Positions 1 to 62,065 of a stretch of 64,000 nt of DNA are shown piece after piece (the stretch's first letter is position 1; each line of letters starts with the position of its first letter). This stretch comes from an uncultured Eubacteriales bacterium (lineage in GTDB: Bacteria > Acidobacteriota > Aminicenantia > Aminicenantales > Aminicenantaceae). Both the position numbers and the translations under genes were made by a program. The stretch lies in contig CAYSCS010000101.1 in assembly GCA_964429695.1 (NCBI GenBank), positions 19,901 through 83,900 of the forward strand, read 5' to 3'. Under the pieces are notes generated by a model. It saw only the letters and a list, made by a program, of their open reading frames with translations, had not been told where the DNA came from and searched no databases.

Positions 1-46
1 AGCTTACTTCACCTGGGATTGGTTTAAGAAAAATCCCTACTGGCAC

Positions 47-1537: not shown

Positions 1538-1598
1538 GCAAAAGAAGAGAAGGGAGCCCTCATTTTTCTCCCCAATAAGGGCTCCCTTCTTTCCTTCT

Positions 1599-3722: not shown

Positions 3723-4516
3723 GAAAAGTATTAATTTTAATCATGTTTAGATGGAATAAGATTTCCATAAAATTATTATCAATACCCTCGAGTTCTTCAA
3801 CCATCTGAGCTCATTCATGAAAAAATCAGCATAACAACTTTTAACTAATTTTACGAAAATTATCAAATAAAAGTTTTTATTTCTAAACTAGAAAAAGGTG
3901 AGAAGACTATCTTTCGTGTTCTCTCAGCATAATTTATCCGTAAGCTAGAGGATAACCTCGCACTTCTCTTTCTTTTCTTTAAAAAATCGATATTAAGAAG
4001 AAGGTCAATGAGAAAATCTTCTCCTCCATAAATCCAGAATACCAACAAAAGCAGGAAGCTAAGGAACTTGGGAAGAGTAATGCGCTCCCCGCATCTCGAT
4101 CTCCTCTTTGGCTTAAAATTTCCACTCGACATCCTTAATGACTTAACCCGGGCTTAAGAGTTCGCCATTTCCTCTCCCTGGAGAAAGATTTATTCCTCCC
4201 TTCTATTTCTGGCCTTTATTCCTCCATTTATGAATTCTCAATCCTCAATCTCTCTTCAATCTTCCTCTCAATGGCTCCGAAGAATAGAATGAGTCCCATT
4301 CCAGGATGAGAGGTCATCTCCAGATAAAAGCTCACGAAGAAGGGTATGTTTAAAATTCTTAAGGGACTATGAATAATTTTGTTTCAGATTTGATTCTCTT
4401 CTCTTCTTTATGGTATAAGCTCGATGAGGAAAAAATCTTCTGAAGAATGAAGTCATCCTCTCTCTCCAGAGAAAAGAAAAATTTCTCAAAAAACCATCCT
4501 TCGCAGGAGGTGTCGT

Positions 4517-9400: not shown

Positions 9401-9945
9401 AGGTCATGGTCCTGGAGTTCGAGATAAAAGTCACCCTTCTCAAAGAGAGACGTGTATTCTAAAGCCTTCTGTTCTGCAATACCCTCCTCTCCCATTCTCA
9501 GGTAGAAGCTTATTTCTCCTTTAAGACAACCTGAAAGCCCTATCAAACCCTCGCTGTGTGCTTGAAGGAGCTCTTTATCAATTCGAGGCCTATAATAAAA
9601 TCCTTCGAGATAGCTTTTGGTAATGAGCTGGCAGAGGTTCTTATAACCCTTTTCATCCTTTACGAGGAGGGTAAGATGAAAATGGCCGGGTCCCTTCTCA
9701 TCCGGCTTCTTCTCGAAACGACTTCCTGGGGCAAGGTAAACCTCACAGCCGAGGATTGGCTTTATCTCCCTCTCCTTTGCCTGCTTGAAGAAATTTACTG
9801 CTCCAAATATGTTTCCATGATCGGTGAGAGCAACGGCGGGCATCTTGTGTTCCCAGGCGGCCTCGACAAGAGAACTAATCTTCATTGCCCCATCGAGGAT
9901 GCTGAATTCAGAGTGATTATGAAGATGAATGAACGAAGAATTCAT
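6469..9945 (-). CDS. dnaE: DNA polymerase III alpha subunit
   Basis: The N-terminal PHP domain reads 'IHLHNHSEFSILDGA'. At 1158 aa it shows typical DnaE-like similarity throughout, and it overlaps the upstream gene by 4 nt. Confidence 0.95.
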   Translation of the reverse strand: MNSSFIHLHNHSEFSILDGAMKISSLVEAAWEHKMPAVALTDHGNIFGAVNFFKQAKEREIKPILGCEVYLAPGSRFEKKPDEKGPGHFHLTLLVKDEKGYKNLCQLITKSYLEGFYYRPRIDKELLQAHSEGLIGLSGCLKGEISFYLRMGEEGIAEQKALEYTSLFEKGDFYLELQDHDLAEQKELNPQLVKLAKKLGLPLVATNDVHYLRKEDAEMQDILLCIQTNKKVTDQDRIRFGSKEFYFKSSPEMLELFKELPEAIQNTIKIASKCNFDFPSGEYFLPLFKTSEGTSLSEYFDKVVREGFEARLKSLLPRIERGELPERRVYEERLEKEIRLVKEMGFEGYFLIVWDLVQMAGKKNIPVGPGRGSAAGSLLSYCLGITDIDPLEYDLLFERFLNPARITLPDIDIDFCGRRREEVIEYVTKKYGRENVCQIITFGTMAARQAVRDVGRALEVPLPEVDAIAKMIPPFGPEATIEGALKNIPQLKDLRDKNTKIAHLLSIAQKLEGQIRHPSIHAAGIVIAPKPLVEFMPLYQSVKGEITTQFPMQDIEALGLLKMDLLGLRNLTVIQDTIELVEKDTKQKIDLKQIPLDDEKTFEVFKSGNTDGVFQFESPGMKDLLRNFKPENFRDLIALNALYRPGPLKSGMTDEFIKRKNHPERVVYEFPELEPILKETKGIIVYQEQVMRIATEFAGFSMAEADILRKAMGKKETAMMKAQKQRFIQGARKKGISQAKATKLFEQIKYFAGYGFNKSHSAAYAYLAYRTAYLKAHYPVYFMAALLTSEAERGATSQVIKYINECKEMGIDVLPPDINESEFSFTVSKGAIRFGLSAIKNVGESAVRSLLKAREKRGKFTSPFDVFQDVDSKLVNRKVIESLIKAGAFDSLGWKRSQLFHLVETMIDYAHEVQRLRSSRQSFLFGHHVLEPREIPREIKEMREWDEPLFLSYEKDALGFYITGHPLRQFEKQLKRLVSYSLGDLDEGIDFNAEIKVAGIVTSLKTLKTRKEERMATFVLEDLSGRIEVVVFPDSYRKHYEILREDSLVWVKGKFFGEGENRRIHLMEIMPLSEALQKQAKRVILRIFLPGIEESIFEELRGILEKNPGGCPVLFELETPHSYRMVAQSSEITSVSPSEELTRAIKNLLGEDSILIEY

Positions 9946-30672: not shown

Positions 30673-33351
30673 TTGACGGAAAAAAAGAGGCTTTTCCTTA
30701 TCGACGGAAATTCTCTCCTTTATCGTTCCTATTACGCCATCCAGAGACTTTCAACCTCTGAAGGATTCCCCACCAATGCCATCTATGGCTTTCTTACCAC
30801 CCTGAAGAAACTCAGGGAAAAGGAGAAACCTGATTACCTGGGGATTGTCTTCGACACTCAAGGACCTACCATCCGCCACGAAGCCTTCAAAGAATACAAG
30901 GCCCACCGCAAGCCTATGCCAGAGGATCTGATGAGTCAGCTCCCTGTGCTCAAAAGACTGATCAATGCACTTAACCTCGTCTTTTTTGAGTATGAAAATT
31001 ATGAAGCTGATGACGTCATCGCCAGCCTTGCCCGTCTTGCTTCATTGAGGGGCATTCATACTGTCATTGTTTCCACGGATAAAGATTTACTCCAAATTGT
31101 GGACGAGAAAACAACCCTTTACAACCCGGCAAAAGAGATTTATCTGGATGAGAAGAGCGTGGAAGACTCTTTCGGCGTCTCTCCTTCACAGGTGGCAGAT
31201 GTTCTTGCCCTCTGGGGAGACCCTTCTGATAACATCCCGGGGGTCCCAGGAATTGGAGAAAAAACCTCAAAGACTCTGCTCAAGGAATTTGGCTCGCTTG
31301 AAAATCTCATCTGTAACCTTGAAAAGGTGAAGAATCCTCGCTTGAGAGAAAGCATAAGACAAAATCTTGATCGCCTGAAAATAAGTCAACAACTGGCAAA
31401 AGTCAAAAGGGATCTTCCCTTGAGCCTTGACTTAGAAAAACTCTCAGTTTCTGAGCCAAACTACCGGGAACTAATTCCTCTTCTTCATGAACTTGAGTTT
31501 TCCTCCCTCCTCCAGGATTATTCACGAAGAACAGATGACACAAAGAAAAAATATAAAGCAGTCCTCAACGAGGATGAACTTCAGGCTCTCCTTAATGAAG
31601 CGAAAAGAAAAGGCTTTCTGGCCCTAGATACAGAAACCACAAGTCCGTTTCCTGTTCGAGCTCAGCTTGTAGGGCTTTCATTATCCTGGGAGGAGAATGA
31701 GGCCTTCTATATTCCCCTGAGGCATGACTATCCTGGAGCACCTCCCCAGATTCCGGTGGAAAAGGCAATTTCGCTTCTTAAAAAGATTCTTTCTGATTCC
31801 TCGGTGAGGAAAATAGGGCAGAACATAAAATATGACTCCATTGTCCTAGAAAAGGAAGGGTTAAAACTCGAAGGAATTGACCTAGACACCATGGTCCTTT
31901 CTTACTTGTTAGAGCCAAACTGGGGAAAACACAGCCTCGATCGAATCGCCCTTCATTACCTCCAGACAAAAACCATCTCTTATGAGGAGCTAGTGGGAAA
32001 AAGGCAAAAAGAAGTCACGGTAAACAAGATTCCCCTCGAGAAGGTAACTCCCTATGCGTGTCAGGACGCAGACCTTGCCCTCCAACTGAGCAGCCTTCTC
32101 TGGAAGAAGGTTAAAGAAAAAAATCTGGATAAACTCTACAGAGAAATTGAACTCCCGCTCATCAATGTCCTCGCAGATATGGAAAAGTGGGGAGTTAAAA
32201 TTGACCCCGAAGTTCTAAAAGCCCTTTCCCTTGAACTAGAATGCGAGCTTAAATATCTTGAAGAAAAAATATTCCACATCTCAGGAATCGAATTCAACAT
32301 CAACTCTCCCCAGCAACTGGGCCATATTCTCTTCGAAAAAATGAATCTTCCTTCTTCAAAAAAGACAAGGAGATCCAAGAGATATTCAACAGATTTTAAT
32401 GTCTTACAGGACCTTACTCCTTCTTTTCCCATTGCAAGATATCTCATCGAATACAGACAGCTCTCAAAATTGAAATCAACCTACGCCGACTCCCTCCCCC
32501 TTCTCATCCATCCCGATACAGGAAGGATTCACACTTCTTACAATCAGACTGTAACCGCAACAGGAAGGCTTTCAAGCAGCGATCCTAATCTCCAGAATAT
32601 CCCTGCAAGGGGAGAGCTCGGACGTAAGTTCCGCGAGGCTTTTATCCCCGAACAAAATTGCTTTTTCCTTCGTGCCGATTACTCTCAGATTGAACTCAGG
32701 GTCTTGGCTCATCTCTCAGAAGACCCCGTGCTTATCGAAACCTTTCTCAGCGACAGAGACATTCATCAAGAAACCGCGACCCGAGTTTTTGGTGCTTTCT
32801 CCTCTCTTTCACCAGAAGAGATGCGCAGGAAAGCAAAGATAATTAACTTCAGCATCATCTATGGTGCCTCGGCTTTTTCTCTCGCCAGAGAATTGGAAAC
32901 CACTCCTTCCGAGGCGCAGAAATTTATCCAGGTTTATTTCTCCCAGCATCCAAAAGTCGAGGATTTCCTGAACATGAAAGTCAAGGAGGCAAGCGAAAAA
33001 GGTTATGCAGAAACGATTTTTGGGAGGAAACGCTCCATACCCGAGCTTAAACATAAAAACAAGGCTTCTCAGCTTGCAGGAAGACGCATCGCCCTTAACA
33101 CTCCCATCCAGGGCACAGCAGCCGATTTGATGAAGAAAGCCATGGTAGATATCTGGAAAGAAATGAAGAGAAGAAAACTCAACTCAAAAATGATTCTCCA
33201 AGTTCATGATGAACTTGTCTTTGAAGTGCCCGATGGAGAGAGAGAGGAAATGGAATCCCTCGTCCGCCAGAAAATGGAAAAGGTTTTCCCTTTAAAGGTC
33301 CCCTTAAAAGTTCATCTTTCCTGGGGGATAAACTGGGCAGAGGCAAAATAG
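30673..33351 (+). CDS. polA: DNA polymerase I
   Basis: The 5'-3' exonuclease N-terminus reads 'LFLIDGNSLLYRSYYA'. The 3'-5' exonuclease domain shows 'LALDTETTS'. The polymerase motifs 'RRKAKIINFSIIYG' and 'LQVHDELVFEV' are present. Confidence 0.95.
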   Translation: MTEKKRLFLIDGNSLLYRSYYAIQRLSTSEGFPTNAIYGFLTTLKKLREKEKPDYLGIVFDTQGPTIRHEAFKEYKAHRKPMPEDLMSQLPVLKRLINALNLVFFEYENYEADDVIASLARLASLRGIHTVIVSTDKDLLQIVDEKTTLYNPAKEIYLDEKSVEDSFGVSPSQVADVLALWGDPSDNIPGVPGIGEKTSKTLLKEFGSLENLICNLEKVKNPRLRESIRQNLDRLKISQQLAKVKRDLPLSLDLEKLSVSEPNYRELIPLLHELEFSSLLQDYSRRTDDTKKKYKAVLNEDELQALLNEAKRKGFLALDTETTSPFPVRAQLVGLSLSWEENEAFYIPLRHDYPGAPPQIPVEKAISLLKKILSDSSVRKIGQNIKYDSIVLEKEGLKLEGIDLDTMVLSYLLEPNWGKHSLDRIALHYLQTKTISYEELVGKRQKEVTVNKIPLEKVTPYACQDADLALQLSSLLWKKVKEKNLDKLYREIELPLINVLADMEKWGVKIDPEVLKALSLELECELKYLEEKIFHISGIEFNINSPQQLGHILFEKMNLPSSKKTRRSKRYSTDFNVLQDLTPSFPIARYLIEYRQLSKLKSTYADSLPLLIHPDTGRIHTSYNQTVTATGRLSSSDPNLQNIPARGELGRKFREAFIPEQNCFFLRADYSQIELRVLAHLSEDPVLIETFLSDRDIHQETATRVFGAFSSLSPEEMRRKAKIINFSIIYGASAFSLARELETTPSEAQKFIQVYFSQHPKVEDFLNMKVKEASEKGYAETIFGRKRSIPELKHKNKASQLAGRRIALNTPIQGTAADLMKKAMVDIWKEMKRRKLNSKMILQVHDELVFEVPDGEREEMESLVRQKMEKVFPLKVPLKVHLSWGINWAEAK

Positions 33352-41266: not shown

Positions 41267-42203
41267 AAAATCATCTCTCCTTATAGTTTTTTTCCCTTTA
41301 TTCCTTATCATCTTTTATTTATCCTGCAAAAGGGAAGTGGCTTGGCATTCCTCCACCCTTCTTTTTTTCGATACGGTGTGCGAAATTAAACTTCTTTGCA
41401 CTCCTTCTCAATTCAAGAACGGCGAGAAAGTTGTGGGAAATTTGTTTGAGTCGATTGAAAAAGAATTTTCACCAGAATCCTACAACAATTCTTCAGATTC
41501 ACTAATAAAATTATTCAAGATCGCACTCAAGATTCATCATGACTCTCAAGGCTCTTTCGATATTAGTGTCGGAGCTCTTTCGAAGGTCTGGGGCTTTAAG
41601 AATAAAGCATACAGAGTCCCTCATCTCTTTGAGATTGAGGAAACGCTCAAGCATGTGGGAATGGAAAAAATAAAAATAGATGAAAATTCTCTCTGGCTCC
41701 CTGAGGGTATGGAGCTTGACTGGGGAGGAATTGCAAAGGGGTATGCCGTCGACTTGGCTTCTCAAGAACTTAGGAAAAGGGGAATCTTAAATGGATTTAT
41801 AAACGCAGGAGGAGACCTTTTTTGCTGGGGGCAAAACCCTGAGCACAAGCCGTGGAAGATAGGAATTAAACATCCTCGCGAACCTGGTTTTTTAGGTATA
41901 CTCTCGATTTCCAATTTAGGCGCTTCAACAACCGGCGACTACCAGCGCTATTTTGAGGTCAAGGGAAAAAGATATCATCATGTGTTTAATCCATTTACGG
42001 GCTTCCCTTCCTCTTTTTATCAAAGTGTAACGGTAGTCGGACCTGAAACGACGATATGCGACGCTCTTTCTACGGCTCTCTTTGTTTCGCCTGAACAAGA
42101 AAAAATAATCCGCCTCTATCCCGAATATGGAGTGATTATTGTCGATTCGAAGGGAAAACTTAAAACGTTAGGGAAAAAATATCCCTTTTCACCCCTCGGT
42201 TAG
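41259..42203 (+). CDS. apbE: FAD:protein FMN transferase (flavin transferase ApbE)
   Basis: Carries 'DWGGIAKGYAVD', 'GASTTGDYQRYF' and 'TVVGPETTICDALSTALFV', all ApbE signatures. Confidence 0.9.
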   Translation: MDKKSSLLIVFFPLFLIIFYLSCKREVAWHSSTLLFFDTVCEIKLLCTPSQFKNGEKVVGNLFESIEKEFSPESYNNSSDSLIKLFKIALKIHHDSQGSFDISVGALSKVWGFKNKAYRVPHLFEIEETLKHVGMEKIKIDENSLWLPEGMELDWGGIAKGYAVDLASQELRKRGILNGFINAGGDLFCWGQNPEHKPWKIGIKHPREPGFLGILSISNLGASTTGDYQRYFEVKGKRYHHVFNPFTGFPSSFYQSVTVVGPETTICDALSTALFVSPEQEKIIRLYPEYGVIIVDSKGKLKTLGKKYPFSPLG

Positions 42204-43300
42204 ATTTTCATGGGCATTAATACATATAAATACTGAATTTCATCGTCAACTTCTGGCTTCATCATCACGGCACTATTCTCATCTTTAATCTCAACTACAA
42301 CTCTTTCGTTTTTAACTGTATTCAAGAAATCAAGGAGGTATTGAGAATTAAATCCTATTTCCATCTCCTTCCCTTCATAATCTACTTGTATTCTATCATG
42401 AGCTTCTCCCATTTCCGGACTCGAAGAGAAGAGGTCAACTTGTTTTTTTGAGAGGAAAAGTTTAATGCCTTTTGACCTCTCGGATGAAAGAAGAGAAACC
42501 CTTTTTATTGAGCTAGCCATTTCATCTCGAGAAAAAGAAAGCCTATTAGGATTATCCCGCGGCATGACAGCCTCATAATTAGGAAACTTCCCTTCAATCA
42601 TTCTTGAAATTAATGTCTTATTTTTTACCCTGAAAAAAAGATTGTTTTCGTCCAGGTCAAACTCAATATCCTCTCCATCTAGTTTTTTTATTTCTCCCAA
42701 GGTTTTTTTGGAAACTATTCCTCTCAATTCACCTCCTATCTTCAATCCTTCCAGCTCCTTTTTTGTGTACGATAATCTATGGCCATCCGTACTAACCAGC
42801 TCTATCGATTTATCCTTGATTATCATCAACGCGCCGTTTAGATAATATCGCTGCTCTTGAGTAATAGCATAATAAACCCTATCTATCATCTCCTTGACTT
42901 CTTCTAAGGGAAGAGATATTCCTTTCTCAAACCTGGGCTCAGGAATTTGGGGATAGTCTTCATGTGGTAAACACAGGATCTTAAATTCGCTTGCTCCGGA
43001 TGTAATTTCCATTCTCAACCCTTCAATTTCTTTAAAAGTTATCAACTGTCCATCAGGAATTGATCTCACTATTTCAAATATTTTCTTTCCTGAAACCGTC
43101 AATGCCCCTTCATCTTCTATCCTGGCCGGGAAATGGGTTATCATTCCTACTTCAAGGTCTGTACCTACCATCTCAACCTCATCTTTCTTAACTTTCAACA
43201 GAATATTGGCAAGAATGGGCATTGTATTTTTCTTCTCCACTATCCCCTGTAAAATTTGGAGCTCACCTACTATTTCCTCTTTATTGATTGAAAAAATCAT
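42200..43300 (-). CDS. dnaN: DNA polymerase III beta subunit (sliding clamp)
   Basis: 366 aa, beginning 'MIFSINKEEIVGELQILQGIVEKKNTMPILANILLKV'. Confidence 0.95.
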   Translation of the reverse strand: MIFSINKEEIVGELQILQGIVEKKNTMPILANILLKVKKDEVEMVGTDLEVGMITHFPARIEDEGALTVSGKKIFEIVRSIPDGQLITFKEIEGLRMEITSGASEFKILCLPHEDYPQIPEPRFEKGISLPLEEVKEMIDRVYYAITQEQRYYLNGALMIIKDKSIELVSTDGHRLSYTKKELEGLKIGGELRGIVSKKTLGEIKKLDGEDIEFDLDENNLFFRVKNKTLISRMIEGKFPNYEAVMPRDNPNRLSFSRDEMASSIKRVSLLSSERSKGIKLFLSKKQVDLFSSSPEMGEAHDRIQVDYEGKEMEIGFNSQYLLDFLNTVKNERVVVEIKDENSAVMMKPEVDDEIQYLYVLMPMKI

Positions 43301-43418
43301 TTCTTCACCTTTTAAATACTTTTTTCTTATTATATATTTCTTATTATATATGCTTATTATTAAAAATAATAATAAAAATCAAACTAAATGTGGAAATCTA
43401 TCGTAATTTATTTATTCT
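43301..43418. promoter_or_regulatory. AT-rich putative DNA-unwinding element with a DnaA-box-like site, between dnaA and dnaN (oriC candidate, part 2)
   Basis: The stretch is more than 85% A+T, with direct repeats 'cttattatatat' x2 plus 'cttattatta'. The site 'TGTGGAAAT' matches the DnaA-box consensus at 7 of 9 positions. Confidence 0.5.
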
Positions 43419-44750
43419 TCAGTAAATCTGGCTGATCAAACTGTTTATTTCTTTGTTGAATTCCGGGTCTTTAGACCTGAGCTTTTCAATTTTTCTAATG
43501 CTGTGTAAGACTGTTGTGTGATGTTTTCCACCGAATTTTCTACCTATTTCAGGCAGAGAACTTTTACTCAACTCCTTGCACAAATACATGGCAATTTGTC
43601 GGGGAAAAGCAACTTTTGGAGAATTGTTTCTAGATTTCAATTCAGAAAGCTTAATTTTAAATCTATGACAAATCACCTTCTGTATTTTTTCCACAGTCAC
43701 AGAAACTTCTGTTTCATCAAGCAATCCCTTTAAGGCTTCTTTAGCCAGTTCAAGGTCAATTGGTTCTCCTCTTAGAGAGGAAAAGACGATTACTCTCCTT
43801 AAATACCCCTCTAACTCTCTTATGTTCGAATGAACTTTATCTGCAATGTAAAGAGCCACGCTTTCAGGGAGGTTGATTCCTTCTAACTCAGATTTTTTCT
43901 TAAGAATGGCAATTCTTGTCTCAATGTCTGGAGGTTTTAAATCTGCAATCAAACCCCATTCGAATCTTGAACTGAAACGTTCTTCAAGGTTGGGAATCTC
44001 TTTTGGAGGGCAGTCTGAGGAGATGACAATCTGTTTCTGATTATCATAAAGATGGTTAAAGGTGTGAAAAAATTCTTCTTTCGTTCTTTCTCTTCCAGAA
44101 AGGTAGTGGATATCATCCATCAACAGAACATCCACTTCCCTGTACTTTTGTCTGAAATCGAGAATTTTTCCGTATTGAAGATGATTAATTAAATCGTTCA
44201 TAAATTTTTCTGTAGTGATGTAAAGAATTTTGAGACGCTGATTATTTTTCAAAGTCAGGTGGCCAATTGCATTCATTAGATGGGTTTTGCCCAGTCCTGC
44301 ACCTCCGTAAATAAAAAGGGGGTTGTATGACTTAGCCGGGTTTTTTGAGACCGCCAAAGAGGCTGCATGGGCAAACTGATTGCAGGAGCCGACGACGAAA
44401 TTTTCGAAGGTGTAATTGGGATTAAGATTGGGATTTAGAATTGACCCCTGTTTCGAGCGACGCTCAAGGGGGGAGACGCGCATAAATGAACTCGATTTTT
44501 CATCAAATATGTAATGGATATCAAAGACAGCACCAAGAATTTCTTTTGAACAGGAATTGATAAGCTCAGAATAATGGAAGGAAAGCCAATCTTTGAAATA
44601 TGAGTTAGGGACTTTGATGTACAGAACATCCTTTTCTTTTCCTATGTAAGAGGTTGGCTCAAACCAGGTTTCGAAGCTCTGTTGGTCAATTTTTTTCCTT
44701 ATGGCTTCCACAATTTGAAGCCAAATGTTTGATTTTTCCTCAGATTCCAT
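43419..44750 (-). CDS. dnaA: Chromosomal replication initiator protein DnaA
   Basis: Carries AAA+ 'GGAGLGKTHL' and 'LLMDDIHYLSG'. The C-terminal DNA-binding region 'IAMYLCKELSKSSLPEIGRKFGGKHHTTVLHSIRKIE' is present. Confidence 0.95.
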   Translation of the reverse strand: MESEEKSNIWLQIVEAIRKKIDQQSFETWFEPTSYIGKEKDVLYIKVPNSYFKDWLSFHYSELINSCSKEILGAVFDIHYIFDEKSSSFMRVSPLERRSKQGSILNPNLNPNYTFENFVVGSCNQFAHAASLAVSKNPAKSYNPLFIYGGAGLGKTHLMNAIGHLTLKNNQRLKILYITTEKFMNDLINHLQYGKILDFRQKYREVDVLLMDDIHYLSGRERTKEEFFHTFNHLYDNQKQIVISSDCPPKEIPNLEERFSSRFEWGLIADLKPPDIETRIAILKKKSELEGINLPESVALYIADKVHSNIRELEGYLRRVIVFSSLRGEPIDLELAKEALKGLLDETEVSVTVEKIQKVICHRFKIKLSELKSRNNSPKVAFPRQIAMYLCKELSKSSLPEIGRKFGGKHHTTVLHSIRKIEKLRSKDPEFNKEINSLISQIY

Positions 44751-44882
44751 TTTTCATTCAGATTTTCACAGATTTTTCCACAACTGTGGAAAAATTAGCC
44801 CTCCTTTGTGACAAAAAACTTGAAGGCTTGCATATGATAGCACCCTTAAAAATAGATATCAATATGTTTATAAAAAATATTT
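44751..44882. promoter_or_regulatory. DnaA-box cluster upstream of dnaA (oriC candidate, part 1)
   Basis: An inverted DnaA-box pair 'TTTTCCACAACTGTGGAAAA' is present (TTTTCCACA and TGTGGAAAA, 8 of 9 each against TTATCCACA). 'TTTTCACAG' lies nearby. Confidence 0.55.
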
Positions 44883-47846
44883 TTAAAAATCAAACCCAAT
44901 CCAAAATTTAGTCTCGAAATTACCATAGGAATTGAAATCAAAGGGATTTTTAATGGCTGGCCATTCAAGACGCTTGGCAAATTCAAGATGGACAGGAAGT
45001 CCTAAGAGAAAGAATTCAAATCCATATCCGTAAGAGCCAATGGCTTCTGATTCTCTAAAGAGAGGGGCTCCAGATGAATCTAATCCTTCAAAGGAAATAA
45101 ATTTTGCTGGATAACCTTTTAGCTTAGCTTGAGCAACGTCAAAGAAGAACGTTCCTCTCACAGGGCCTATCTGTCCGATGAGAGTTGAGGCAGAATTTAT
45201 CAAGGGAAACCTTAATTCAAGGTTGGCATACCATCCTTGGTTGGCGATTATGTTGTAGTAATATGAAGAACGGACCTGGTTGTTGCCTCCAAAATAAAAA
45301 ATGTAAGGATTTTTTCCCCAGCTTCCAAAGCCTTCAAATCGAACGGCAAAAATCAAATCAGCCCCAAGATGAAGATAATGTCTCAGGTCCACTTCGAGGC
45401 TAGTGTTATTGAAAAAACTTTCAGCTAGAGGAAGGGCCTGGGAAAAAGTGATCCTAAATGTGTTTCCGCTTACAGGTCCATAATATTTAAACTTAGTGGT
45501 TTCTCCGATCAAAGAGAAATTTAGTAAAAGATGGTTTCCATTCCAGAAGCTGGTAAAGGTTCGCCCCCTGACGAAAAGACTGTGAGTTAGATAAGGATTA
45601 TAGAAATCTTCTTCATAATGATAGAAACCGAGGCTCGCTTCTGTCCTTAAGTATTTGTTAAGTGGGTAATAGGAGCTTATGCTTATTCCTGAAATCTTGC
45701 GAGTTGCAAGAGCATCTTTATAAGTCAGAAAGTTATAGAAATAAGGGTCGTAGTAAGAATATGGTGGATAATAAAAGAGGGTATATTGGAAGACACTGGC
45801 AAGATACTGAAGCCTTTTTTTCTGGTTGATATAAGCAAAATAGTAAGAACGAAAGCTCCTCACTTGATAAGCCATGATGTAGAAGTTATGGTCACCTAAA
45901 AGGTCAGTAAAGGAAAGGGCAGAGCCTCCGTAGATGGAACCGTCTGTAGAGACAATGGTATCAACTGGGGGGCGTGAAGCGAGGTAAAGTTTCCCCAGCC
46001 CCTTATAATGTTCTATTTTGTTTTCATCGATTTCAAAGGAGAGGATTGGCTCAAACCTTTTGAATTGCTCTTCTTGCTTTCGTTCACTAAAAATAATTTT
46101 CTCCTCGATTTTTCCTTCGAGTTCACTTTGATAAATCTGGAAGGAACTCTTGTTAAAAGAAGAAAACACGATTTTCTGAGGTTCCCGCGGAAGAGGAATG
46201 GGGAAAAAGTTTCCGCTACGTACATCGGTGTAGCGCTTTAATTCACCGCTTTGTATATTTATAGAATAAATGTTGAACGCACCCCTTTTGTCTGAGGAGA
46301 AGAAGATCTCTTTTGAATCTGAGGCAAAATGGGGAGCTATGGCATTTTCATCTCCAAAGGTCAGCTGTTTCTTCTGCTTGAGGTCTTCAGCGGGGGAAAT
46401 AAAAAGCTTGTCATAGGCGTCGATACGAATGGTATAGGCGATTAATTTTCCATCCGGAGAAATATTAGGGGCCTTTTCAAAAAGGTCATCCTGAGTTAAA
46501 TTGGTAAATTCTTGGGTTAAGAGGTTGACTTTGAAGATGTCGTATATTCCATTATCAAAGGCAGTAAAGAGAAGCTCTTCCCTGTCAGGGAAAAAACAGG
46601 GGGAAGCGGGCTGATCAAAAGGAATCGGAATTTTTTTTAGAGTCTTTCCTGTTAAAGGGCTCAGGATAAAAAGAGAATGTTTCCTTCCTGATCGAGCAAA
46701 GAAGACAATTCTATCTCCATCCGGAGACCAGGCAATGTCTTTCCCCATCGAAGGATCGATCTCATATTTTATGCGTTCATATTTGATGGTATAACCCTTT
46801 GTGATGTTCTTAATAACTGAGCCGTCTTTGGTTGAAACAAGGATTATATCTAGGTCATTATCTTTTACATTTAGAGCGAGAGCCGCCACTATGTCTCCTG
46901 AAGGCGAGACTGCGTGGGAGAGAGAAAAATAATAGGGATTTTGAGGGAAAACCGGTCCGATGGGGAAGCTGTAATCTTCCGGGCTTTCTCTGTCGAGGAA
47001 ATCTCTGTGTTTCAGACGAAGATATTTTTTGAATTCATGATTGAATTCCTTAGTTGTCATATTAAATGCTTTTTTAATCGGGTCTTTTCTCCCCACCCGA
47101 GGCATTGTTTTTAGTGCTTGCCAGAGCTCGTGGATTCCACTTTTTCCATACTTATGCTCGATGAAATCAAAGATGGCGTGCCCGAAGTCATAGTCAGGAG
47201 GACGGGGAAGAGGATAAGAAGACACAAGTTCCCCCGACTCGTTTAGCTCAGGAATTCTATCGTTTAACACAGCATCTCTTACAATTAATGAAGACCAGGA
47301 AGACCAATTCTGGGTATTATACTCGCAGAAGCCTTCCATTATCCACCCCGGAGGTTGAGTCAGGGCATAAAGAACACCACCTGGGCTTCCCCAAAGAAGG
47401 TCATATTCGAAGATGTGAGTCAACTCATGGATGATTAGCTCTTGAATCTCATCAGGAGCCATGTCTCCCTGGATGGCTATGCGATAGAGGACTGGCTCTG
47501 CCACCCCCAGAACTCCTTCTGGAAGCTGGAAAAGATTTGTCTGCTCAAAATCTGTGGAAGTTTTGTAATAAATGAGAGGCACAGGCGCCGAGAGTTCATG
47601 TTTTATGTTTTGACTGATGCGCAGATAGGCACTTTCTGCCATTGCAGAAAGAATTTTAAGCACCCAGGGAGAATCCATGTAGTAGTGGATGTCGAAATGT
47701 TCTGTTTTGTAGTGTTTCCACTTAAAATTTTCATAGATGACCTTATTTTTTCCATAATAAGGGAAATAGATCACTTGGGATAGCCCGAAGATGCTCGAAA
47801 GAATCCAAAGGGTGATGGATAAGGCCAATTTTTTGTGATTTTTCAT
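44883..47846 (-). CDS. Large outer-membrane protein: an N-terminal HExxH (gluzincin-like) domain, a central PD40/TolB-type beta-propeller and a C-terminal Omp85-superfamily beta-barrel
   Basis: There is an N-terminal signal/TM 'LALSITLWILSSIFGL'. 'IIHELTHIFEYD' with a downstream 'IMEGFCEY' forms an HExxH+E arrangement. PD40 repeats include 'WSPDGDRIVFFARS' and 'ISPDGKLIAYT'. The C-terminal barrel shows a BamA-like loop-6 'GPVRGTFFFD' and the terminal 'KFWIGFDF'. Confidence 0.7.
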   Translation of the reverse strand: MKNHKKLALSITLWILSSIFGLSQVIYFPYYGKNKVIYENFKWKHYKTEHFDIHYYMDSPWVLKILSAMAESAYLRISQNIKHELSAPVPLIYYKTSTDFEQTNLFQLPEGVLGVAEPVLYRIAIQGDMAPDEIQELIIHELTHIFEYDLLWGSPGGVLYALTQPPGWIMEGFCEYNTQNWSSWSSLIVRDAVLNDRIPELNESGELVSSYPLPRPPDYDFGHAIFDFIEHKYGKSGIHELWQALKTMPRVGRKDPIKKAFNMTTKEFNHEFKKYLRLKHRDFLDRESPEDYSFPIGPVFPQNPYYFSLSHAVSPSGDIVAALALNVKDNDLDIILVSTKDGSVIKNITKGYTIKYERIKYEIDPSMGKDIAWSPDGDRIVFFARSGRKHSLFILSPLTGKTLKKIPIPFDQPASPCFFPDREELLFTAFDNGIYDIFKVNLLTQEFTNLTQDDLFEKAPNISPDGKLIAYTIRIDAYDKLFISPAEDLKQKKQLTFGDENAIAPHFASDSKEIFFSSDKRGAFNIYSINIQSGELKRYTDVRSGNFFPIPLPREPQKIVFSSFNKSSFQIYQSELEGKIEEKIIFSERKQEEQFKRFEPILSFEIDENKIEHYKGLGKLYLASRPPVDTIVSTDGSIYGGSALSFTDLLGDHNFYIMAYQVRSFRSYYFAYINQKKRLQYLASVFQYTLFYYPPYSYYDPYFYNFLTYKDALATRKISGISISSYYPLNKYLRTEASLGFYHYEEDFYNPYLTHSLFVRGRTFTSFWNGNHLLLNFSLIGETTKFKYYGPVSGNTFRITFSQALPLAESFFNNTSLEVDLRHYLHLGADLIFAVRFEGFGSWGKNPYIFYFGGNNQVRSSYYYNIIANQGWYANLELRFPLINSASTLIGQIGPVRGTFFFDVAQAKLKGYPAKFISFEGLDSSGAPLFRESEAIGSYGYGFEFFLLGLPVHLEFAKRLEWPAIKNPFDFNSYGNFETKFWIGFDF

Positions 47847-47859
47847 AAGTTTTCTTTCG

Positions 47860-48567
47860 TCATTTATATATCAAATACCTTTCTTCAACCATACTTTCGC
47901 CAAAAAAATTGCGGAAAAGCTTAGTTTTTACTTTACGGATTAAGTCAAAAAAAGCAAAATAAGCGGTCTGGTTTGGGTTCCTGTAAGATTGGGTTTCCTT
48001 GAAGTTTTTTTTGAATAAAATTTTTCCGGATTCTGGATCGACGAGGTAGAAGTCGACACTCAGAGAGTAGAATTTTCGCTCCGCAAGTCCTTTTTCGGGA
48101 GGAAAGGGCTCCTCATATCTACTTGGAGGTCTTTTTTCTATGAGTGCCTTCCTTATTTCCTCGCTGTAGGATGCAGTTCCCGTAATCAACAGAGAATCTT
48201 TACTTCCCAAGGAAGCATTTTTCCAGAACCCTTCATCCTCAAGGACTTCTTCTTTTTCAATCATAATCTCTCTTGAAATAACCTCTCCTTCAAACTTACG
48301 CTTGAGTTCTGTCTCTAAGAAACTAACGATTTCAGAACTGAGGTTGATGTCTTTTGTCTCTTTTTTCACATAGAAATTGGTGAGAATGAGCATTTCATAG
48401 GCATCAAGGTCAATGACCTTTTTCCCAGGAAGCTCGAGCTTCAATTTCAAGTACGAACCAGACGAGCAGGAAAAGAAAAAAACAGCGAGTCCCAAAAAAA
48501 GAAGCTTAATTCTCGACTTCTTTTTCCATGCTTTGAAGATATTTTTTAAAACTTTCATAATTAGCAA
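47860..48567 (-). CDS. Hypothetical lipoprotein
   Basis: Signal with lipobox 'LAVFFFSCSSG'. No recognised domain. It lies 13 nt upstream of the 987-aa gene. Confidence 0.5.
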   Translation of the reverse strand: MLIMKVLKNIFKAWKKKSRIKLLFLGLAVFFFSCSSGSYLKLKLELPGKKVIDLDAYEMLILTNFYVKKETKDINLSSEIVSFLETELKRKFEGEVISREIMIEKEEVLEDEGFWKNASLGSKDSLLITGTASYSEEIRKALIEKRPPSRYEEPFPPEKGLAERKFYSLSVDFYLVDPESGKILFKKNFKETQSYRNPNQTAYFAFFDLIRKVKTKLFRNFFGESMVEERYLIYK

Positions 48568-48859
48568 GAATGTATTTATTACCAGGGCTTATTTTTAAGG
48601 CTTCTTTATATTCCTTCTCGGCTTCTTCCCAAAGGCCTTTTTTTTCATAAGCAACTGCCAAATTATTGTGGGCTGCAGCAGAAGTAGGGTTTTCAAGGAG
48701 AACTTTTTTCCAGCGAAAAATTGCCTCCTCCCAGAGATCCTTCTCTGCCGCAAAAATGCCAAACTGAAGTTGATGGTCAGAAAGGGAGCGGCTGCATCCG
48801 CTCTGGAAAAAGAGGACGGCAAGGGAAATTCCTGAAAAAAGGAAAAAATTTCTTTTCAT
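48506..48859 (-). CDS. TPR-repeat lipoprotein
   Basis: Signal with lipobox 'FFQSGCSRS'. TPR-like 'AAAHNNLAVAYEKKGLWEEAEKEYKEALKISPGNKYILANY' follows. Confidence 0.6.
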   Translation of the reverse strand: MKRNFFLFSGISLAVLFFQSGCSRSLSDHQLQFGIFAAEKDLWEEAIFRWKKVLLENPTSAAAHNNLAVAYEKKGLWEEAEKEYKEALKISPGNKYILANYESFKKYLQSMEKEVEN

Positions 48860-49063
48860 TTATTATTAAAGTAATTCTTTTTCGAAGTTCAGTCAAGGAT
48901 TCAAGGCTTAATTTTAATGACCATTCAGCTTTTTTATATCTTGAGAAAATGAAAGACTAACAAATAGATGGGCCTTTTCTTCGAATATTTCCTTTGCTCA
49001 AATTTTTATACTTGGCTTTTCGAATGAAATATGCTATAAGAAGGGTCTAAGCAGAGAGAAAAA

Positions 49064-49255
49064 ATGGCGAGAAGATGTGAAGTTTGCGGAAAAGGGCCGA
49101 GATTCGGAGTCTCACTCAGTCATTCCCATAAGGCATCAAAGAAAAAATGGAAGCCAAACCTTCAGCATGTAAAGGCACAGACTGAAGAAGGAGTGAGGAA
49201 GATATGGGTTTGTACCAGATGCTTGCGTTCGAGTAAGGTTAAAAAGGCAATTTAA
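49064..49255 (+). CDS. rpmB: 50S ribosomal protein L28
   Basis: 63 aa, beginning 'MARRCEVCGKGPRFGVSLSHSHKASKKKWKPNLQ'. Confidence 0.92.
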   Translation: MARRCEVCGKGPRFGVSLSHSHKASKKKWKPNLQHVKAQTEEGVRKIWVCTRCLRSSKVKKAI

Positions 49256-51405
49256 ATCCTCTCCACAGAATTGATTTCTTTAATCCTGGATATTTTTCTG
49301 ATTATGCTTTCCAAGACTTTGATGTCTCTTATGCGCAGAGCAATTTTTAATTCTGCCTTTTTATCCTCAAAGGTGAGGACTTCGGCCTTGGTTATGTTCC
49401 CTCCCAAATGAGCGATTGCTGAACTCAGCTTAGCAAGAACGCCTGGGGTGTCTTCACTGCGGATGAGGAGCCTTGCCTTGAAGTCCTTTCCAGAAAAGAC
49501 CCCCCAGGAAACCTCTATCATCCTTAGAGAATCAAGGATTTCTTTTTTTATCAGTGGACAACGCAAGGCATGGACAGTAATTCCTTTCCCGGAAGTAATA
49601 TATCCTGTTATGGGTTCCCCTTTGACTGGGGAACAGCATTTGGCAAGCCTGAGAGAGAGGCCGCTCGGGTCTCTTACCTCTACCTCGACATTTCCCTTTC
49701 CGCTCACTTTTTTCATCATTTTTATATAAAGTGGTTCTTTTTTCGATTCTAATTCGAGGGAGGGGAAGAGCTTCTCCAAAATTTTTCTATTAAGGATAAT
49801 TTTCCCGTAGCCAAGGCAGGAATAAAATTCATCCCAGCTCTTGAGGCGGAAGTTCGTTGCCTTTGCCACGCTTTGAAGAAGAGATTCTTCTTCCAAGGTT
49901 TCTGCGGAAAGATTATATTTTTTCAATTGCCTTTCCCAAAGCTTCCTACCTAAGGCGCTTTTCTTAATTTTCTCCTGCTGATTAAGCCAGCGTTTGATGT
50001 GGTGGCGGGCTTTTGAGGTAGAGACCATATTCAACCATTCTCTGGCAGGGGTAACATCTTCAGAGGTAAGTATCTCTACGATGTCTCCAGGTTGGAGAAT
50101 GTTCTTTAAAGGGGCCTCTCTTCCATTTATTTTTGCTGCTCTGGCGTGCATGCCTAATTCAGAGTGAATCTTGAAGGCAAAATCGAGAGCAGAGGCACCA
50201 AGGGGGAGAGTAATCACCTCTCCCTTTGGAGTAAAGACATATATTTCTTCTGGAACGAGGTCGTTTTTCAAGCTCTTCAAAAATTGTTGAGGATTCTTCT
50301 GTTCTTTATAGAGCTCAACCATCTCTCTCAGCCAGTAAAGCCTTTTATCTTCCTGAAGGATTGCATGAGGGTCTTTCTCCTTATATTTCCAGTGAGCCGA
50401 GATTCCATTTTCAGCGAGGTTGTGCATTTCGTGAGTGCGTATTTGGATTTCGACCGTTTGTTTCTTTTCAGTTATGATTGTGGTATGAAGTGACTGGTAA
50501 AGATTTGGTTTAGGCATGGCTATGAAGTCTCGAAAACGATGGGGAATATGGGGCCATTTTTGATGGATAATGCCCAAAGCTGAATAGCAATTATTTACTG
50601 AGTCGGTGATGAGACGCAAAGCCATGAAATCGAAGACCTGGTTGAAATCAATTTGTTGCCTTCGCATCTTATGGTATATGCTATAAAGACGCTTTATGCG
50701 GTAAAAGATTTGGGCAGGGATGTTATTTTGATTCATCAAATCTTCTAAGGTTTTTCCTATCTTCTTTAGCTCGGCTTCAGCTTCCTTTTTTAGGGGGTCG
50801 ACGAGCGAGGCTATTTTGAAGTAGTTTTCAGGGTCCACATAGCGAAAGGAGAGGTCTTCGAGTTCTGCTTTTATTCTTCCCATTCCCAGCCTATTAGCAA
50901 TTGGTGCATAAATTTCGAGTGTTTCTTCGGCTATCTGTTTTTGCTTGTCATCGGGAAGAAATTTTAAGGTCTTCAGGTTATGAATACGGTCTGCGAGTTT
51001 AATGAAAATGACTCTTAAGTCATCTGTCATGGCGAGGATTATTTTCCTAATCGTCTCGGCCTGCCTTCTTTCAGGGGTTGACTCTTCCATACGACTGATC
51101 TTGGTCACCCCTTCCACAAGGTGAGCAACCTTATCGCCAAAGGCTTGTTGGAGGTCCGCAATGGTGACATCTGTGTCTTCTAAAACATCATGGAGGAGGC
51201 CGGCGACAAGTGTGGTGCTATCAAGCTTCATATCTGCCAGCATGTTTGCGACTTCTAGGGGATGGCTGAGGTATGGTTCTCCCGAACGCCTTGTTTGCCC
51301 CTTGTGCGCACGAGCCGCAAAGACATAGGCTTTCTTGAGAAGGTTTATTTCTTTTTCCTTATAAACGGGCGTAACCTTTTCCAGAATATCATCAAATCTG
51401 AGCAT
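49252..51405 (-). CDS. rel: Bifunctional (p)ppGpp synthetase/hydrolase (RelA/SpoT homologue)
   Basis: The HD domain shows 'HPLEVANMLADM...LHDVLEDT'. The synthetase domain shows 'RIKRLYSIYHKM'. TGS and C-terminal ACT domains are present. 717 aa. Confidence 0.93.
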   Translation of the reverse strand: MLRFDDILEKVTPVYKEKEINLLKKAYVFAARAHKGQTRRSGEPYLSHPLEVANMLADMKLDSTTLVAGLLHDVLEDTDVTIADLQQAFGDKVAHLVEGVTKISRMEESTPERRQAETIRKIILAMTDDLRVIFIKLADRIHNLKTLKFLPDDKQKQIAEETLEIYAPIANRLGMGRIKAELEDLSFRYVDPENYFKIASLVDPLKKEAEAELKKIGKTLEDLMNQNNIPAQIFYRIKRLYSIYHKMRRQQIDFNQVFDFMALRLITDSVNNCYSALGIIHQKWPHIPHRFRDFIAMPKPNLYQSLHTTIITEKKQTVEIQIRTHEMHNLAENGISAHWKYKEKDPHAILQEDKRLYWLREMVELYKEQKNPQQFLKSLKNDLVPEEIYVFTPKGEVITLPLGASALDFAFKIHSELGMHARAAKINGREAPLKNILQPGDIVEILTSEDVTPAREWLNMVSTSKARHHIKRWLNQQEKIKKSALGRKLWERQLKKYNLSAETLEEESLLQSVAKATNFRLKSWDEFYSCLGYGKIILNRKILEKLFPSLELESKKEPLYIKMMKKVSGKGNVEVEVRDPSGLSLRLAKCCSPVKGEPITGYITSGKGITVHALRCPLIKKEILDSLRMIEVSWGVFSGKDFKARLLIRSEDTPGVLAKLSSAIAHLGGNITKAEVLTFEDKKAELKIALRIRDIKVLESIIRKISRIKEINSVERI

Positions 51406-60709: not shown

Positions 60710-62065
60710 ATGGAGCTTGACTTAATGTTCTTGAAGAGGACTCCGCCCCACAGCTTGGAGGCAGAAAAGACTGTGCTGGGGGGAATTCTTGTCAACAATA
60801 AGAACCTTAATGTGGTTTTATCCATCATAACCCCTGATGATTTCTATAAAGAGGCAAATCGAAAAATTTTAGAGAAGATAATTGCTCTTGTGGATAAGGG
60901 ACTCCCGGTGGACTTATTAACCTTGAGCGAGGAGCTTCAGAAAGCTGGTTGCTTGGATGAGGTTGGGGGTGCCACCTATCTTTCTTCGTTGATGGATGGG
61001 GTTCCCAAAAGCCTGAACATAGAATATCATGCTCAAATAATCAAGGAGAAATCTCTCCTCAGGCGTCTTATCCTTTCTTCGGCAAAGATTATTTCTTCAA
61101 GCTACGAACAGAAGGAAGATGCAGACCAGCTCCTCGACGAAGCTCAGGCAGCCATAATAGAAATCGCCGAACAGAGAATTAAGCCGGGATTCATCCCTCT
61201 CAGGGCATTGACCGACCCCACACTGGAGATGATTCATGCCCTCCATGAGCGAAAACAGGCAGTGACAGGGATACCAACCGGGTTTCGTGACCTGGATGGT
61301 TTGACTTCTGGATTTCACAATTCTGAATTTATCGTCATTGCAGCCAGGCCGTCGATGGGAAAGACCTCCTTGGGCTTAAACATTTCCCATTATGTGGGGG
61401 TCAAGACTGATTATTCTGTAGGGTTTTTTTCCTTAGAAATGGCCAAGGAGCAGATTGTCATCCGCCTCCTGTGCGCAGAAGCTCAGCTTGATATCAGGAA
61501 GGTTCGCACAGGATTTATCAGTGAAAGAGATTTCGAAAAGCTTAAGCTGAGCGCCGAAGTTTTGAAAAATGCCAATATCTTCATTGACGAATCACCATCT
61601 TTAAACGTGATGGAGATGAAGGCAAAGGCAAGAAGGCTGAAGATGGAACAGAATCTCGACCTTCTCTTTGTGGATTATATCCAGCTGATGAGACCAGGAG
61701 GAAGGTTTGAAAGCAGGACTCAAGAGATGACTTACATCTCCCGCTCCTTAAAGGAACTCGCTAAAGAAATTCAAATTCCTGTCGTAGGGATTTCCCAGTT
61801 AAGCAGAGCACCCGAGAAGGGGAGGCGAGAGCCTATTCCCCAACTTTCTGATTTGAGAGAATCAGGAGCCATCGAACAGGATGCCGATGTGGTCGTTTTT
61901 ATCTACCGTCCTGAGCTTTATCGGCCTCATGAGGAGAGCATCCGGGGAATTGCGGAAATCAACGTTGCCAAACAGCGCAATGGACCTACAGGAAAAATAA
62001 CCCTCGCTTTCATCAAGGAGTATGCACGCTTTGTCGACATGGAATTTCGTGCCTTAGAACTTTGA
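60710..62065 (+). CDS. dnaB: Replicative DNA helicase
   Basis: The N-terminus reads 'PPHSLEAEKTVLGGIL'. Walker A is 'AARPSMGKTSLGLN', and 'ISQLSRAPE' is present. Confidence 0.95.
   Translation: MELDLMFLKRTPPHSLEAEKTVLGGILVNNKNLNVVLSIITPDDFYKEANRKILEKIIALVDKGLPVDLLTLSEELQKAGCLDEVGGATYLSSLMDGVPKSLNIEYHAQIIKEKSLLRRLILSSAKIISSSYEQKEDADQLLDEAQAAIIEIAEQRIKPGFIPLRALTDPTLEMIHALHERKQAVTGIPTGFRDLDGLTSGFHNSEFIVIAARPSMGKTSLGLNISHYVGVKTDYSVGFFSLEMAKEQIVIRLLCAEAQLDIRKVRTGFISERDFEKLKLSAEVLKNANIFIDESPSLNVMEMKAKARRLKMEQNLDLLFVDYIQLMRPGGRFESRTQEMTYISRSLKELAKEIQIPVVGISQLSRAPEKGRREPIPQLSDLRESGAIEQDADVVVFIYRPELYRPHEESIRGIAEINVAKQRNGPTGKITLAFIKEYARFVDMEFRALEL

Follow-up and report, generated by a model that had tools for sequence, protein, structure and literature searches.

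A WD40-like Omp85 protein with a predicted zinc-peptidase domain, encoded beside a TPR lipoprotein and a PelC/LptE-fold lipoprotein in an uncultured Aminicenantes bacterium

We analyzed a stretch of 64,000 nucleotides (nt) from an uncultured bacterium of the Aminicenantaceae (assembly GCA_964429695.1, contig CAYSCS010000101.1, positions 19,901 to 83,900), hereafter called the window, and concentrated on three genes that are read on the minus strand towards dnaA. The last and largest of them encodes a protein of 987 amino acids (aa), called BIG here, in which a metallopeptidase-like domain, a beta-propeller and an Omp85-type barrel follow each other. The two genes before it encode small lipoproteins, one with TPR repeats and one that we call MID. 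We regard the domain identity and the architecture of BIG, namely peptidase, propeller, no POTRA domain and Omp85 barrel, as near certain. The features of the trio are the following.

48506..48859, minus strand: TPR lipoprotein of 117 aa with about 2-3 TPR units, first gene of the trio (TPR_2 at 8e-11 and other TPR families)
47860..48558, minus strand: MID, lipoprotein of 232 aa with an alpha/beta fold of the PelC/LptE/TolB-N type, 13 nt before BIG
44883..47846, minus strand: BIG gene, stop codon included (Peptidase_MA-like domain, PD40 propeller, Omp85 barrel; open reading frame, homologues and AlphaFold2 (AF2) model)
47775..47846, minus strand: Sec signal peptide of BIG, residues 1-24, MKNHKKLALSITLWILSSIFGLSQ
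46959..47771, minus strand: gluzincin (clan MA) metallopeptidase-like domain, residues ~26-296 (profile matches and invariant residues)
47415-47429, minus strand: HELTH, residues 140-144 (motif read in the sequence)
47319-47345, minus strand: WIMEGFCEY, residues 168-176, with E171 as third zinc ligand (motif read in the sequence)
within 47178-47198, minus strand: Y219 (invariant residue)
46077..46949, minus strand: six-bladed beta-propeller of the TolB/PD40 type, residues ~300-590 (Pfam, NCBIfam and model)
45987..46076, minus strand: short POTRA-less linker, residues 591-620
44886..45986, minus strand: Omp85-type 16-stranded beta-barrel, residues ~621-987 (fold, HHalign and transitive Pfam matches)
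45258-45290, minus strand: loop-6 motif GGNNQVRSSYY, residues 853-863
45204-45224, minus strand: strand-12 motif NLELRFP
45132-45164, minus strand: strand-13 motif PVRGTFFFDVA
44886-44915, minus strand: C-terminal beta-signal ETKFWIGFDF

By open reading frame (ORF) calling, BIG is one uninterrupted frame. More than 100 homologues of 974-998 aa, all from Candidatus Aminicenantes / Acidobacteriota metagenome bins, are colinear with it over 98-100% of the length at 61-71% identity. A hidden frameshift, or a gene made of two ORFs, is therefore ruled out, and the single 987-aa frame proposed in an earlier reading of this DNA from its sequence alone (the sequence-only reading) stands. The AF2 model of the protein has a predicted local distance difference test (pLDDT) score of 81.4 and a predicted template modelling (pTM) score of 0.77. 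It shows a helix at residues 3-22, within the signal peptide, and Q24 is invariant in close homologues; we infer cleavage after residue 24. Just past this point, the segment IYFPYYGKNKV (residues 26-38, window 47733-47771, minus strand) is nearly invariant family-wide, G32, N34 and K35 being conserved at no less than 90%. It is modelled with a pLDDT below 50 and may be a partner-binding or strand-augmentation segment.

The peptidase domain was approached through a set of 50 divergent representatives of the family, 22-39% identical to BIG. Pfam Peptidase_MA_2 (PF13485), which the sequence-only reading had suggested, is matched at E<=0.01 by 35 of them (best E 8.5e-20), and BIG itself stays below the threshold, with 19.1 bits for a cut-off of 32.4 (E=1.2e-3). 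Fewer of the 50 match M9 collagenase, BSP and M61. The HExxH...E module lies where it had been announced, as HELTH and WIMEGFCEY, and R122, H140, E141, H144, E171, G172 and Y219 are invariant in all 50. Among the matches of a profile of the N-terminal domain are the cold-active aminopeptidase 3cia of family M1 (E=4e-6), collagenase ColG of family M9 (3.5e-5) and a glutamyl aminopeptidase (7.5e-4); the M1 enzymes matched include 4kx7 besides 3cia. In the alignment to 3cia, HELTH falls on HELAH and WxMEG on WLNEG, where the third zinc ligand sits. Y219 coincides with the Tyr of VPYVKG, and from what is known of the M1 family, we take Y219 to be the transition-state tyrosine. BIG is thus predicted from its sequence to have a complete gluzincin catalytic set, H140-E141-x-x-H144, E171 and Y219, and such strict conservation of the catalytic residues means that catalysis matters. 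Other hallmarks of M1 enzymes are not seen: the model has no beta-sandwich domain before the catalytic domain, and a conserved strand G-x-x-E117-P...R122 upstream of HExxH was aligned to GxMEN by no tool.

The blades of the PD40/TolB type that had been read from the sequence were confirmed. PD40 (PF07676) matches BIG with E=2.7e-12, and residues 305-583 form six blades of four strands each in the AF2 model. The TolB-propeller equivalog TIGR02800 gives 7.7e-26 and 91 bits against a cut-off of 343, over model positions 158-368, that is the propeller part only. Both phmmer with BIG and the full-length family profile reached nothing but TolB-type propellers among the Protein Data Bank (PDB) sequences. 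No tol or pal neighbours of BIG were seen, so the gene cluster typical of TolB (tolQRA-tolB-pal) is not the setting of BIG. At the linker, the model lacks a beta-alpha-alpha-beta-beta unit, and no POTRA appears either among the Pfam matches of BIG or among the 25 listed Pfam families of the 50 homologues. The claim that a barrel stands here in a layout without POTRA domains is thus borne out.

Recognizing this barrel was less direct. Pfam PF01103 (Omp85), the family to which the sequence-only reading had assigned it, gives no match on BIG even at E<=1, nor does NCBIfam, and the solved BamA, TamA and FhaC sequences in the PDB were reached by neither phmmer nor the family profile. The barrel was therefore established by fold, HHalign and transitive Pfam matches. 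Foldseek matches the BIG model to E. coli BamA barrels with E of ~6e-10 over ~400 columns, and PF01103 is matched by 24 of the 50 divergent homologues aligning over the barrel (best E 4.7e-23). HHalign of the family C-terminal profile against E. coli BamA gives a probability of 93.9% and E=1.5e-7; the BamA fragment used agrees in every residue with 648-810 of the deposited chains. This fold, profile and transitive evidence overrides the failed PF01103 score: BIG ends in an Omp85 barrel, 16-stranded and of the fold seen in BamA, TamA, Sam50 and FhaC.

The alignment places E877 of BIG on E717 of BamA and D903 on D740. R859 and E877 are invariant in the 50 divergent members, and D903 is at least 90% conserved. 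The family consensus, GGxxTLRGYxY and FxDxGxAW, corresponds to the canonical loop-6 and strand-13 motifs of Omp85 proteins. BIG itself reads GGNNQVR859SSYY in loop 6, with Ser replacing Gly after the Arg, and FFD903VA in strand 13, with Ala replacing Gly; the loop-6 assignment comes from motif similarity and from the strand order in the model, not from HHalign. The internal lock of Omp85 proteins thus appears to be kept in BIG, with Arg859 of loop 6, Glu877 of strand 12 and Asp903 of strand 13 as its residues. As this functional lock is retained, the barrel is probably more than an anchor. The protein does end in ...FWIGFDF, as had been noted, and this beta-signal is an aromatic one. Loop 6 had to be moved: the 'VRG' first taken for it (residues 896-898) aligns with S-V-R-T of BamA before strand 13, and loop 6 is at residues 853-863.

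Upstream of BIG, the two lipoprotein genes lie as the sequence-only reading had described them, on the same strand, one of them with TPR repeats, with a 13-nt spacing and an overlap (53 nt, between the TPR and MID genes), and the operon is conserved. MID starts at the same ATG as the public call P0288. Its lipobox cysteine, Cys31, is invariant in MID proteins and its two-layer alpha/beta fold is that of PelC, LptE and CsgG. No Pfam or NCBIfam family was matched, LptE and PelC models included, and weak FlgT_M matches in 27 of 53 members are the sole signal. DUF6340, which a weak initial match had suggested as a natural fusion of MID and TPR, was rejected, being matched by no MID member. The lipobox cysteine of the TPR protein is conserved in Aminicenantes (L001-L035), and the proteins of Vicinamibacteria (L036, L040, L042, L071) have a plain signal peptide only; lipid anchoring of the TPR partner is therefore lineage-specific.

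Synteny was followed by tblastn of the window proteins against 82 loci. The 50-sequence alignment was too divergent for the locus search and a narrower one was used, so that the best 80 loci are all from Acidobacteriota. Essentially all Aminicenantes loci with enough flank show the order RelA...TPR-MID-BIG-dnaA, and loci of ~35% identity in Vicinamibacteria and Marinacidobacterales show TPR-MID-BIG without dnaA. Within one branch of the family, the trio thus forms a unit that has been conserved, with synteny spanning two acidobacterial classes, and its genes appear to be co-transcribed. A promoter and terminator scan of 44600-49300 gave sites no commoner than in shuffled controls, with the exception of a plausible dnaA promoter at 44862-44834. 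In a Vicinamibacterales group of ~34% identity (L059-L082, for example L060:2116-3485, minus strand), the BIG gene comes without TPR and MID genes and adjoins a divergently transcribed pair of ECF sigma factor and zf-HC2-type anti-sigma factor, which suggests that this paralogue group is under envelope-stress regulation. In Elusimicrobiota, a gene with a GWxTD domain (L083:6109-7416) comes after the homologue P0226 (1194 aa), and no TPR/MID pair lies upstream of this homologue.

The family extends well beyond these loci. When its profile was searched against 1.84 billion cluster representatives, 1,136 clusters (50% identity) scored E<=1e-30, many over their full length. According to the cluster names, members occur in Acidobacteriota and Elusimicrobiota, and one is named 'BamA/TamA family outer membrane protein' by NCBI. 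Eight distant representatives differ in their gene neighbourhoods. Two of these eight lineages have a TamB gene (PF04357) directly upstream on the same strand. In L084, TamB (E=1e-45) occupies 1-4004 and the homologue 4001-7111, with a 4-nt overlap; in L088, TamB (E=4.5e-34) occupies 2-1180 and the homologue 1294-4497. Both homologues have the layout Peptidase_MA_2-PD40-Omp85, and they sit, relative to TamB, where a TamA-type partner would be expected.

This architecture has a place in the literature. In the Omp85/TpsB superfamily, Heinz & Lithgow (2014, Front Microbiol 5:370; PMC4104836) distinguished ten subfamilies and accepted POTRA-less ones, among them a 'WD40-like' subfamily with a TolB-like propeller in place of the POTRA domains. 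Their Table S2 gives architectures of PF01103 with PF07676, and their Table S3 gives about 95 WD40-like members with Phyre2 matches to BamA/TamA barrels and to TolB; its column 'best aminopeptidase hit' adds 1z5h, 4kxd, 3qnf, 4ar1 and 4ar9 (M1 and M9) at ~99%. Culturable carriers named in that table include Rhodothermus marinus, Cytophaga hutchinsonii, Myxococcus or Anaeromyxobacter, and Vibrio vulnificus. Our matches for the N-terminal domain of BIG fall in the same enzyme families as 1z5h, 4kxd and 4ar1. Their main text treats the propeller alone and likens the subfamily to a BamA-BamB fusion; function, lipoprotein partners and TamB linkage are not given. Their 'Metallo' subfamily is distinct and carries PF00149. 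A 2024 paper on PlpD (PMC11116518) counts subfamilies with such N-terminal domains among 'intriguing targets' and shows that the patatin domain of PlpD is exclusively periplasmic and not secreted. Apart from the catalogue of 2014 and the remark of 2024, we found no functional study of this architecture, and a paper on how TAM, the translocation and assembly module, evolved does not mention the WD40-like subfamily or its tamB linkage. The identical architecture in the homologue set leads us to place BIG among the WD40-like Omp85 proteins, as a divergent member from Aminicenantes and not as a new kind of machine. The layout had been presented as non-standard, and it does differ from BamA and TamA in having no POTRA domain, but it was already catalogued in 2014 and is not unprecedented. 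For the TPR and PelC/LptE-fold partners, and for the tamB linkage in relatives, no earlier report was found.

What could such a protein do? Omp85 barrels have a periplasmic N-terminus. Given this topology and the precedent of PlpD, the only relative of non-POTRA type known to have been studied, the peptidase and the propeller of BIG most likely lie under the outer membrane, and a periplasmic position of both domains is likely. We propose that they hang below the membrane on its periplasmic side, and that BIG, the TPR protein and MID could form an outer-membrane complex laid out like BamA-BamD, LptD-LptE or PelB-PelC, with the two small proteins docked to the barrel in the manner of BamD, LptE and PelC. 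The propeller would limit access to the active site to unfolded chains or peptides, much as it does in tricorn-type enzymes, DPP-IV and prolyl oligopeptidase. Unfolded envelope polypeptides, such as stalled or mis-assembled outer-membrane proteins, could then be cut by BIG on the inner side of the outer membrane, in a quality control resembling that of BepA; this class of substrates is a guess. It is reasonable to infer a putative outer-membrane protease or substrate-capture machine, as the sequence-only reading did. Taken as a whole, the explanation of BIG as a WD40-like Omp85 member acting as a periplasmic gated protease in an outer-membrane complex with the TPR protein and MID, with BepA-like quality control as its task, is to our mind somewhat on the probable side.

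Several observations weigh against this explanation. BIG itself fails to match PF01103 and remains under the cut-off of Peptidase_MA_2. TPR and MID genes are absent at many homologues (the Vicinamibacterales group at ~34% identity, Elusimicrobiota and others), and so the family as a whole does not share the complex. The TamB gene next to two of the eight distant lineages hints at a role like that of TamA and not a purely proteolytic one. Finally, the WD40-like subfamily was still described in 2024 as not well characterised (PMC11116518).

A bolder version would make the three proteins an undescribed outer-membrane machine, whose barrel captures envelope polypeptides that are unfolded or bear a beta-signal and feeds them to its own propeller-gated zinc peptidase. 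It would be a 'degradase' counterpart of BAM that neither inserts nor exports, and the tamB-linked relatives might then act as a proteolytic substitute for TamA. We consider this doubtful. The same two relatives could be taken to mean that the barrel is an outer-membrane receptor for a TamB/AsmA-like bridge in lipid or protein transport, with the propeller and the peptidase as accessory replacements of the POTRA domains. However, TamB was found neither within 4 kb in any of the 80 loci from Acidobacteriota nor at any place in the 64-kb window, the conserved neighbours here are the TPR and MID proteins, and the invariance of the catalytic residues speaks for proteolysis as a central activity, not an accessory one; we find such a docking role unlikely. 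One would also wonder whether the barrel exports its own peptidase-propeller passenger in a type V-like manner, giving a surface or secreted protease that digests environmental proteins for nutrition. This topology has been raised for Omp85 proteins with enzymatic N-terminal domains (PMC4104836), and the other peptidases of the window would fit a peptide-using lifestyle, such as a second propeller peptidase at 1599-3722 (minus strand), a protein of 707 aa with PD40 and Peptidase_S9 (prolyl oligopeptidase family) and no barrel. Yet the precedent was overturned by the periplasmic location of the PlpD patatin domain (PMC11116518), a 16-stranded barrel is unlikely to carry a folded passenger of ~600 residues that includes a propeller, the N-terminus of the C-terminal barrel lies in the periplasm as it does throughout the Omp85 proteins, and the folds of the partners are typical of periplasm-facing outer-membrane lipoproteins. 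Export of this kind seems to us quite improbable.

One could also assume a tether or scaffold in the manner of Tol-Pal, in which the propeller binds Pal, an OmpA-like protein or another lipoprotein, the peptidase trims the partner and the barrel is a mere anchor. PD40 propellers in general resemble TolB, neither tolQRA nor pal occurs in the neighbourhood, and the conserved Omp85 core residues would be needless for a passive anchor, which makes this very unlikely. Pseudo-enzymes normally lose their catalytic residues; in BIG, the five catalytic residues H140, E141, H144, E171 and Y219 are kept throughout the 50 representatives and align with those of active M1 and M9 enzymes. We thus give hardly any credence to a dead peptidase that would make BIG a BamB-like propeller fused to an Omp85 insertase, even though the subfamily has been likened to a BamA-BamB fusion (PMC4104836) and the Peptidase_MA_2 score of BIG is below threshold.

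Next to BIG lies a region that looks like a replication origin, with the following features.

43419..44750: dnaA, after a 132-nt spacer from BIG (ORF calling)
42200..43300: dnaN, downstream of dnaA (ORF calling)
44774-44793, no strand assigned: inverted DnaA-box pair TTTTCCACA, in the 132-nt spacer before dnaA (44751-44882), as context only

The trio does read towards dnaA, as the sequence-only reading had it, but the 'cluster' of DnaA boxes reduces to this one inverted pair. The spacer between dnaA and dnaN (43301-43418) is 85% A+T and holds one DnaA-box-like TGTGGAAAT, and the cumulative GC skew has its minimum at ~44 kb. An AT-rich spacer, inverted boxes and a turn of the GC skew make a bipartite origin region plausible. 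We rejected a functional role of this neighbourhood: the trio persists without dnaA outside Aminicenantes and there are only two DnaA boxes. Being limited to Aminicenantes, the dnaA adjacency is not part of the BIG system. On the other side of the trio, rpmB (ribosomal protein L28, 63 aa; 49064-49255, plus strand) diverges from the TPR gene and shares 4 nt with the stop end of relA/spoT (49252-51405, minus strand), which is convergent to it. Further replication genes of the window are dnaE (Pol III alpha; 6469-9945, minus strand), polA (30673-33351, plus strand) and dnaB (60710-62065, plus strand). At its left end, an ORF for a TonB-dependent-receptor-like beta-barrel (47-1537, plus strand) matches OMP_b-brl_4 with E=1.3e-28 in the C-terminal half of the model only; it has probably been truncated by the window edge or given a wrong start.

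The BIG locus opens no new category, and its host is uncultured. Omp85 proteins are nevertheless the core of outer-membrane biogenesis, and the subfamilies with enzymatic or propeller N-terminal domains are acknowledged gaps. The TPR and PelC/LptE-fold partners in two acidobacterial classes, and tamB elsewhere, provide concrete partner hypotheses.

A comparison with known systems helps to situate BIG. BamA and TamA have three to five POTRA domains where BIG has ~600 residues of peptidase and propeller. BIG has no HMMER sequence match to any solved BamA or TamA, its barrel is at most a putative insertase and, in contrast with TamA, adjacency to tamB is seen only in two distant homologues. With TolB, which has an N-terminal alpha/beta domain before its six-bladed propeller, only the propeller is shared, outside any TolB gene cluster. 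MID differs from the lipoproteins of the PelC, LptE, CsgG and PqiC types in belonging to none of their sequence families. The peptidase domain aligns with the M1 and M9 gluzincins through its HExxH...E...Y set, but it is minimal (~270 residues), without the N-terminal sandwich of M1 enzymes or a clear GxMEN. Prolyl oligopeptidase (S9), DPP-IV and tricorn likewise have a beta-propeller fused beside a peptidase domain, whereas BIG is anchored whole in the outer membrane and the gating by its propeller is presumed.

A functional analogy can be drawn with BepA, in which an HExxH zinc protease and TPR elements also meet an Omp85 barrel at the periplasmic face of the outer membrane. BepA is, however, a separate soluble M48 protein that docks onto BAM, whereas the protease of BIG is of another clan-MA type, covalently fused to the barrel, and the TPR protein is separate and small; the analogy is no evidence of the same function. 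PlpD is another Omp85 barrel with an enzymatic N-terminal domain and provides the precedent for a periplasmic location, although it combines a patatin lipase with one POTRA domain and forms a homodimer, where BIG has a zinc peptidase and a propeller without POTRA. The closest likeness is with the WD40-like Omp85 proteins. BIG departs from them in being missed by the Omp85 model of Pfam and in reading VRSS instead of (V/L)RG(Y/F) in loop 6. It shares with them the C-terminal Omp85 barrel, the TolB-like PD40 propeller that replaces the POTRA domains and the aminopeptidase- or collagenase-like domain at the N-terminus, and its homologues carry in Pfam exactly the combination of Peptidase_MA_2, PD40 and Omp85.

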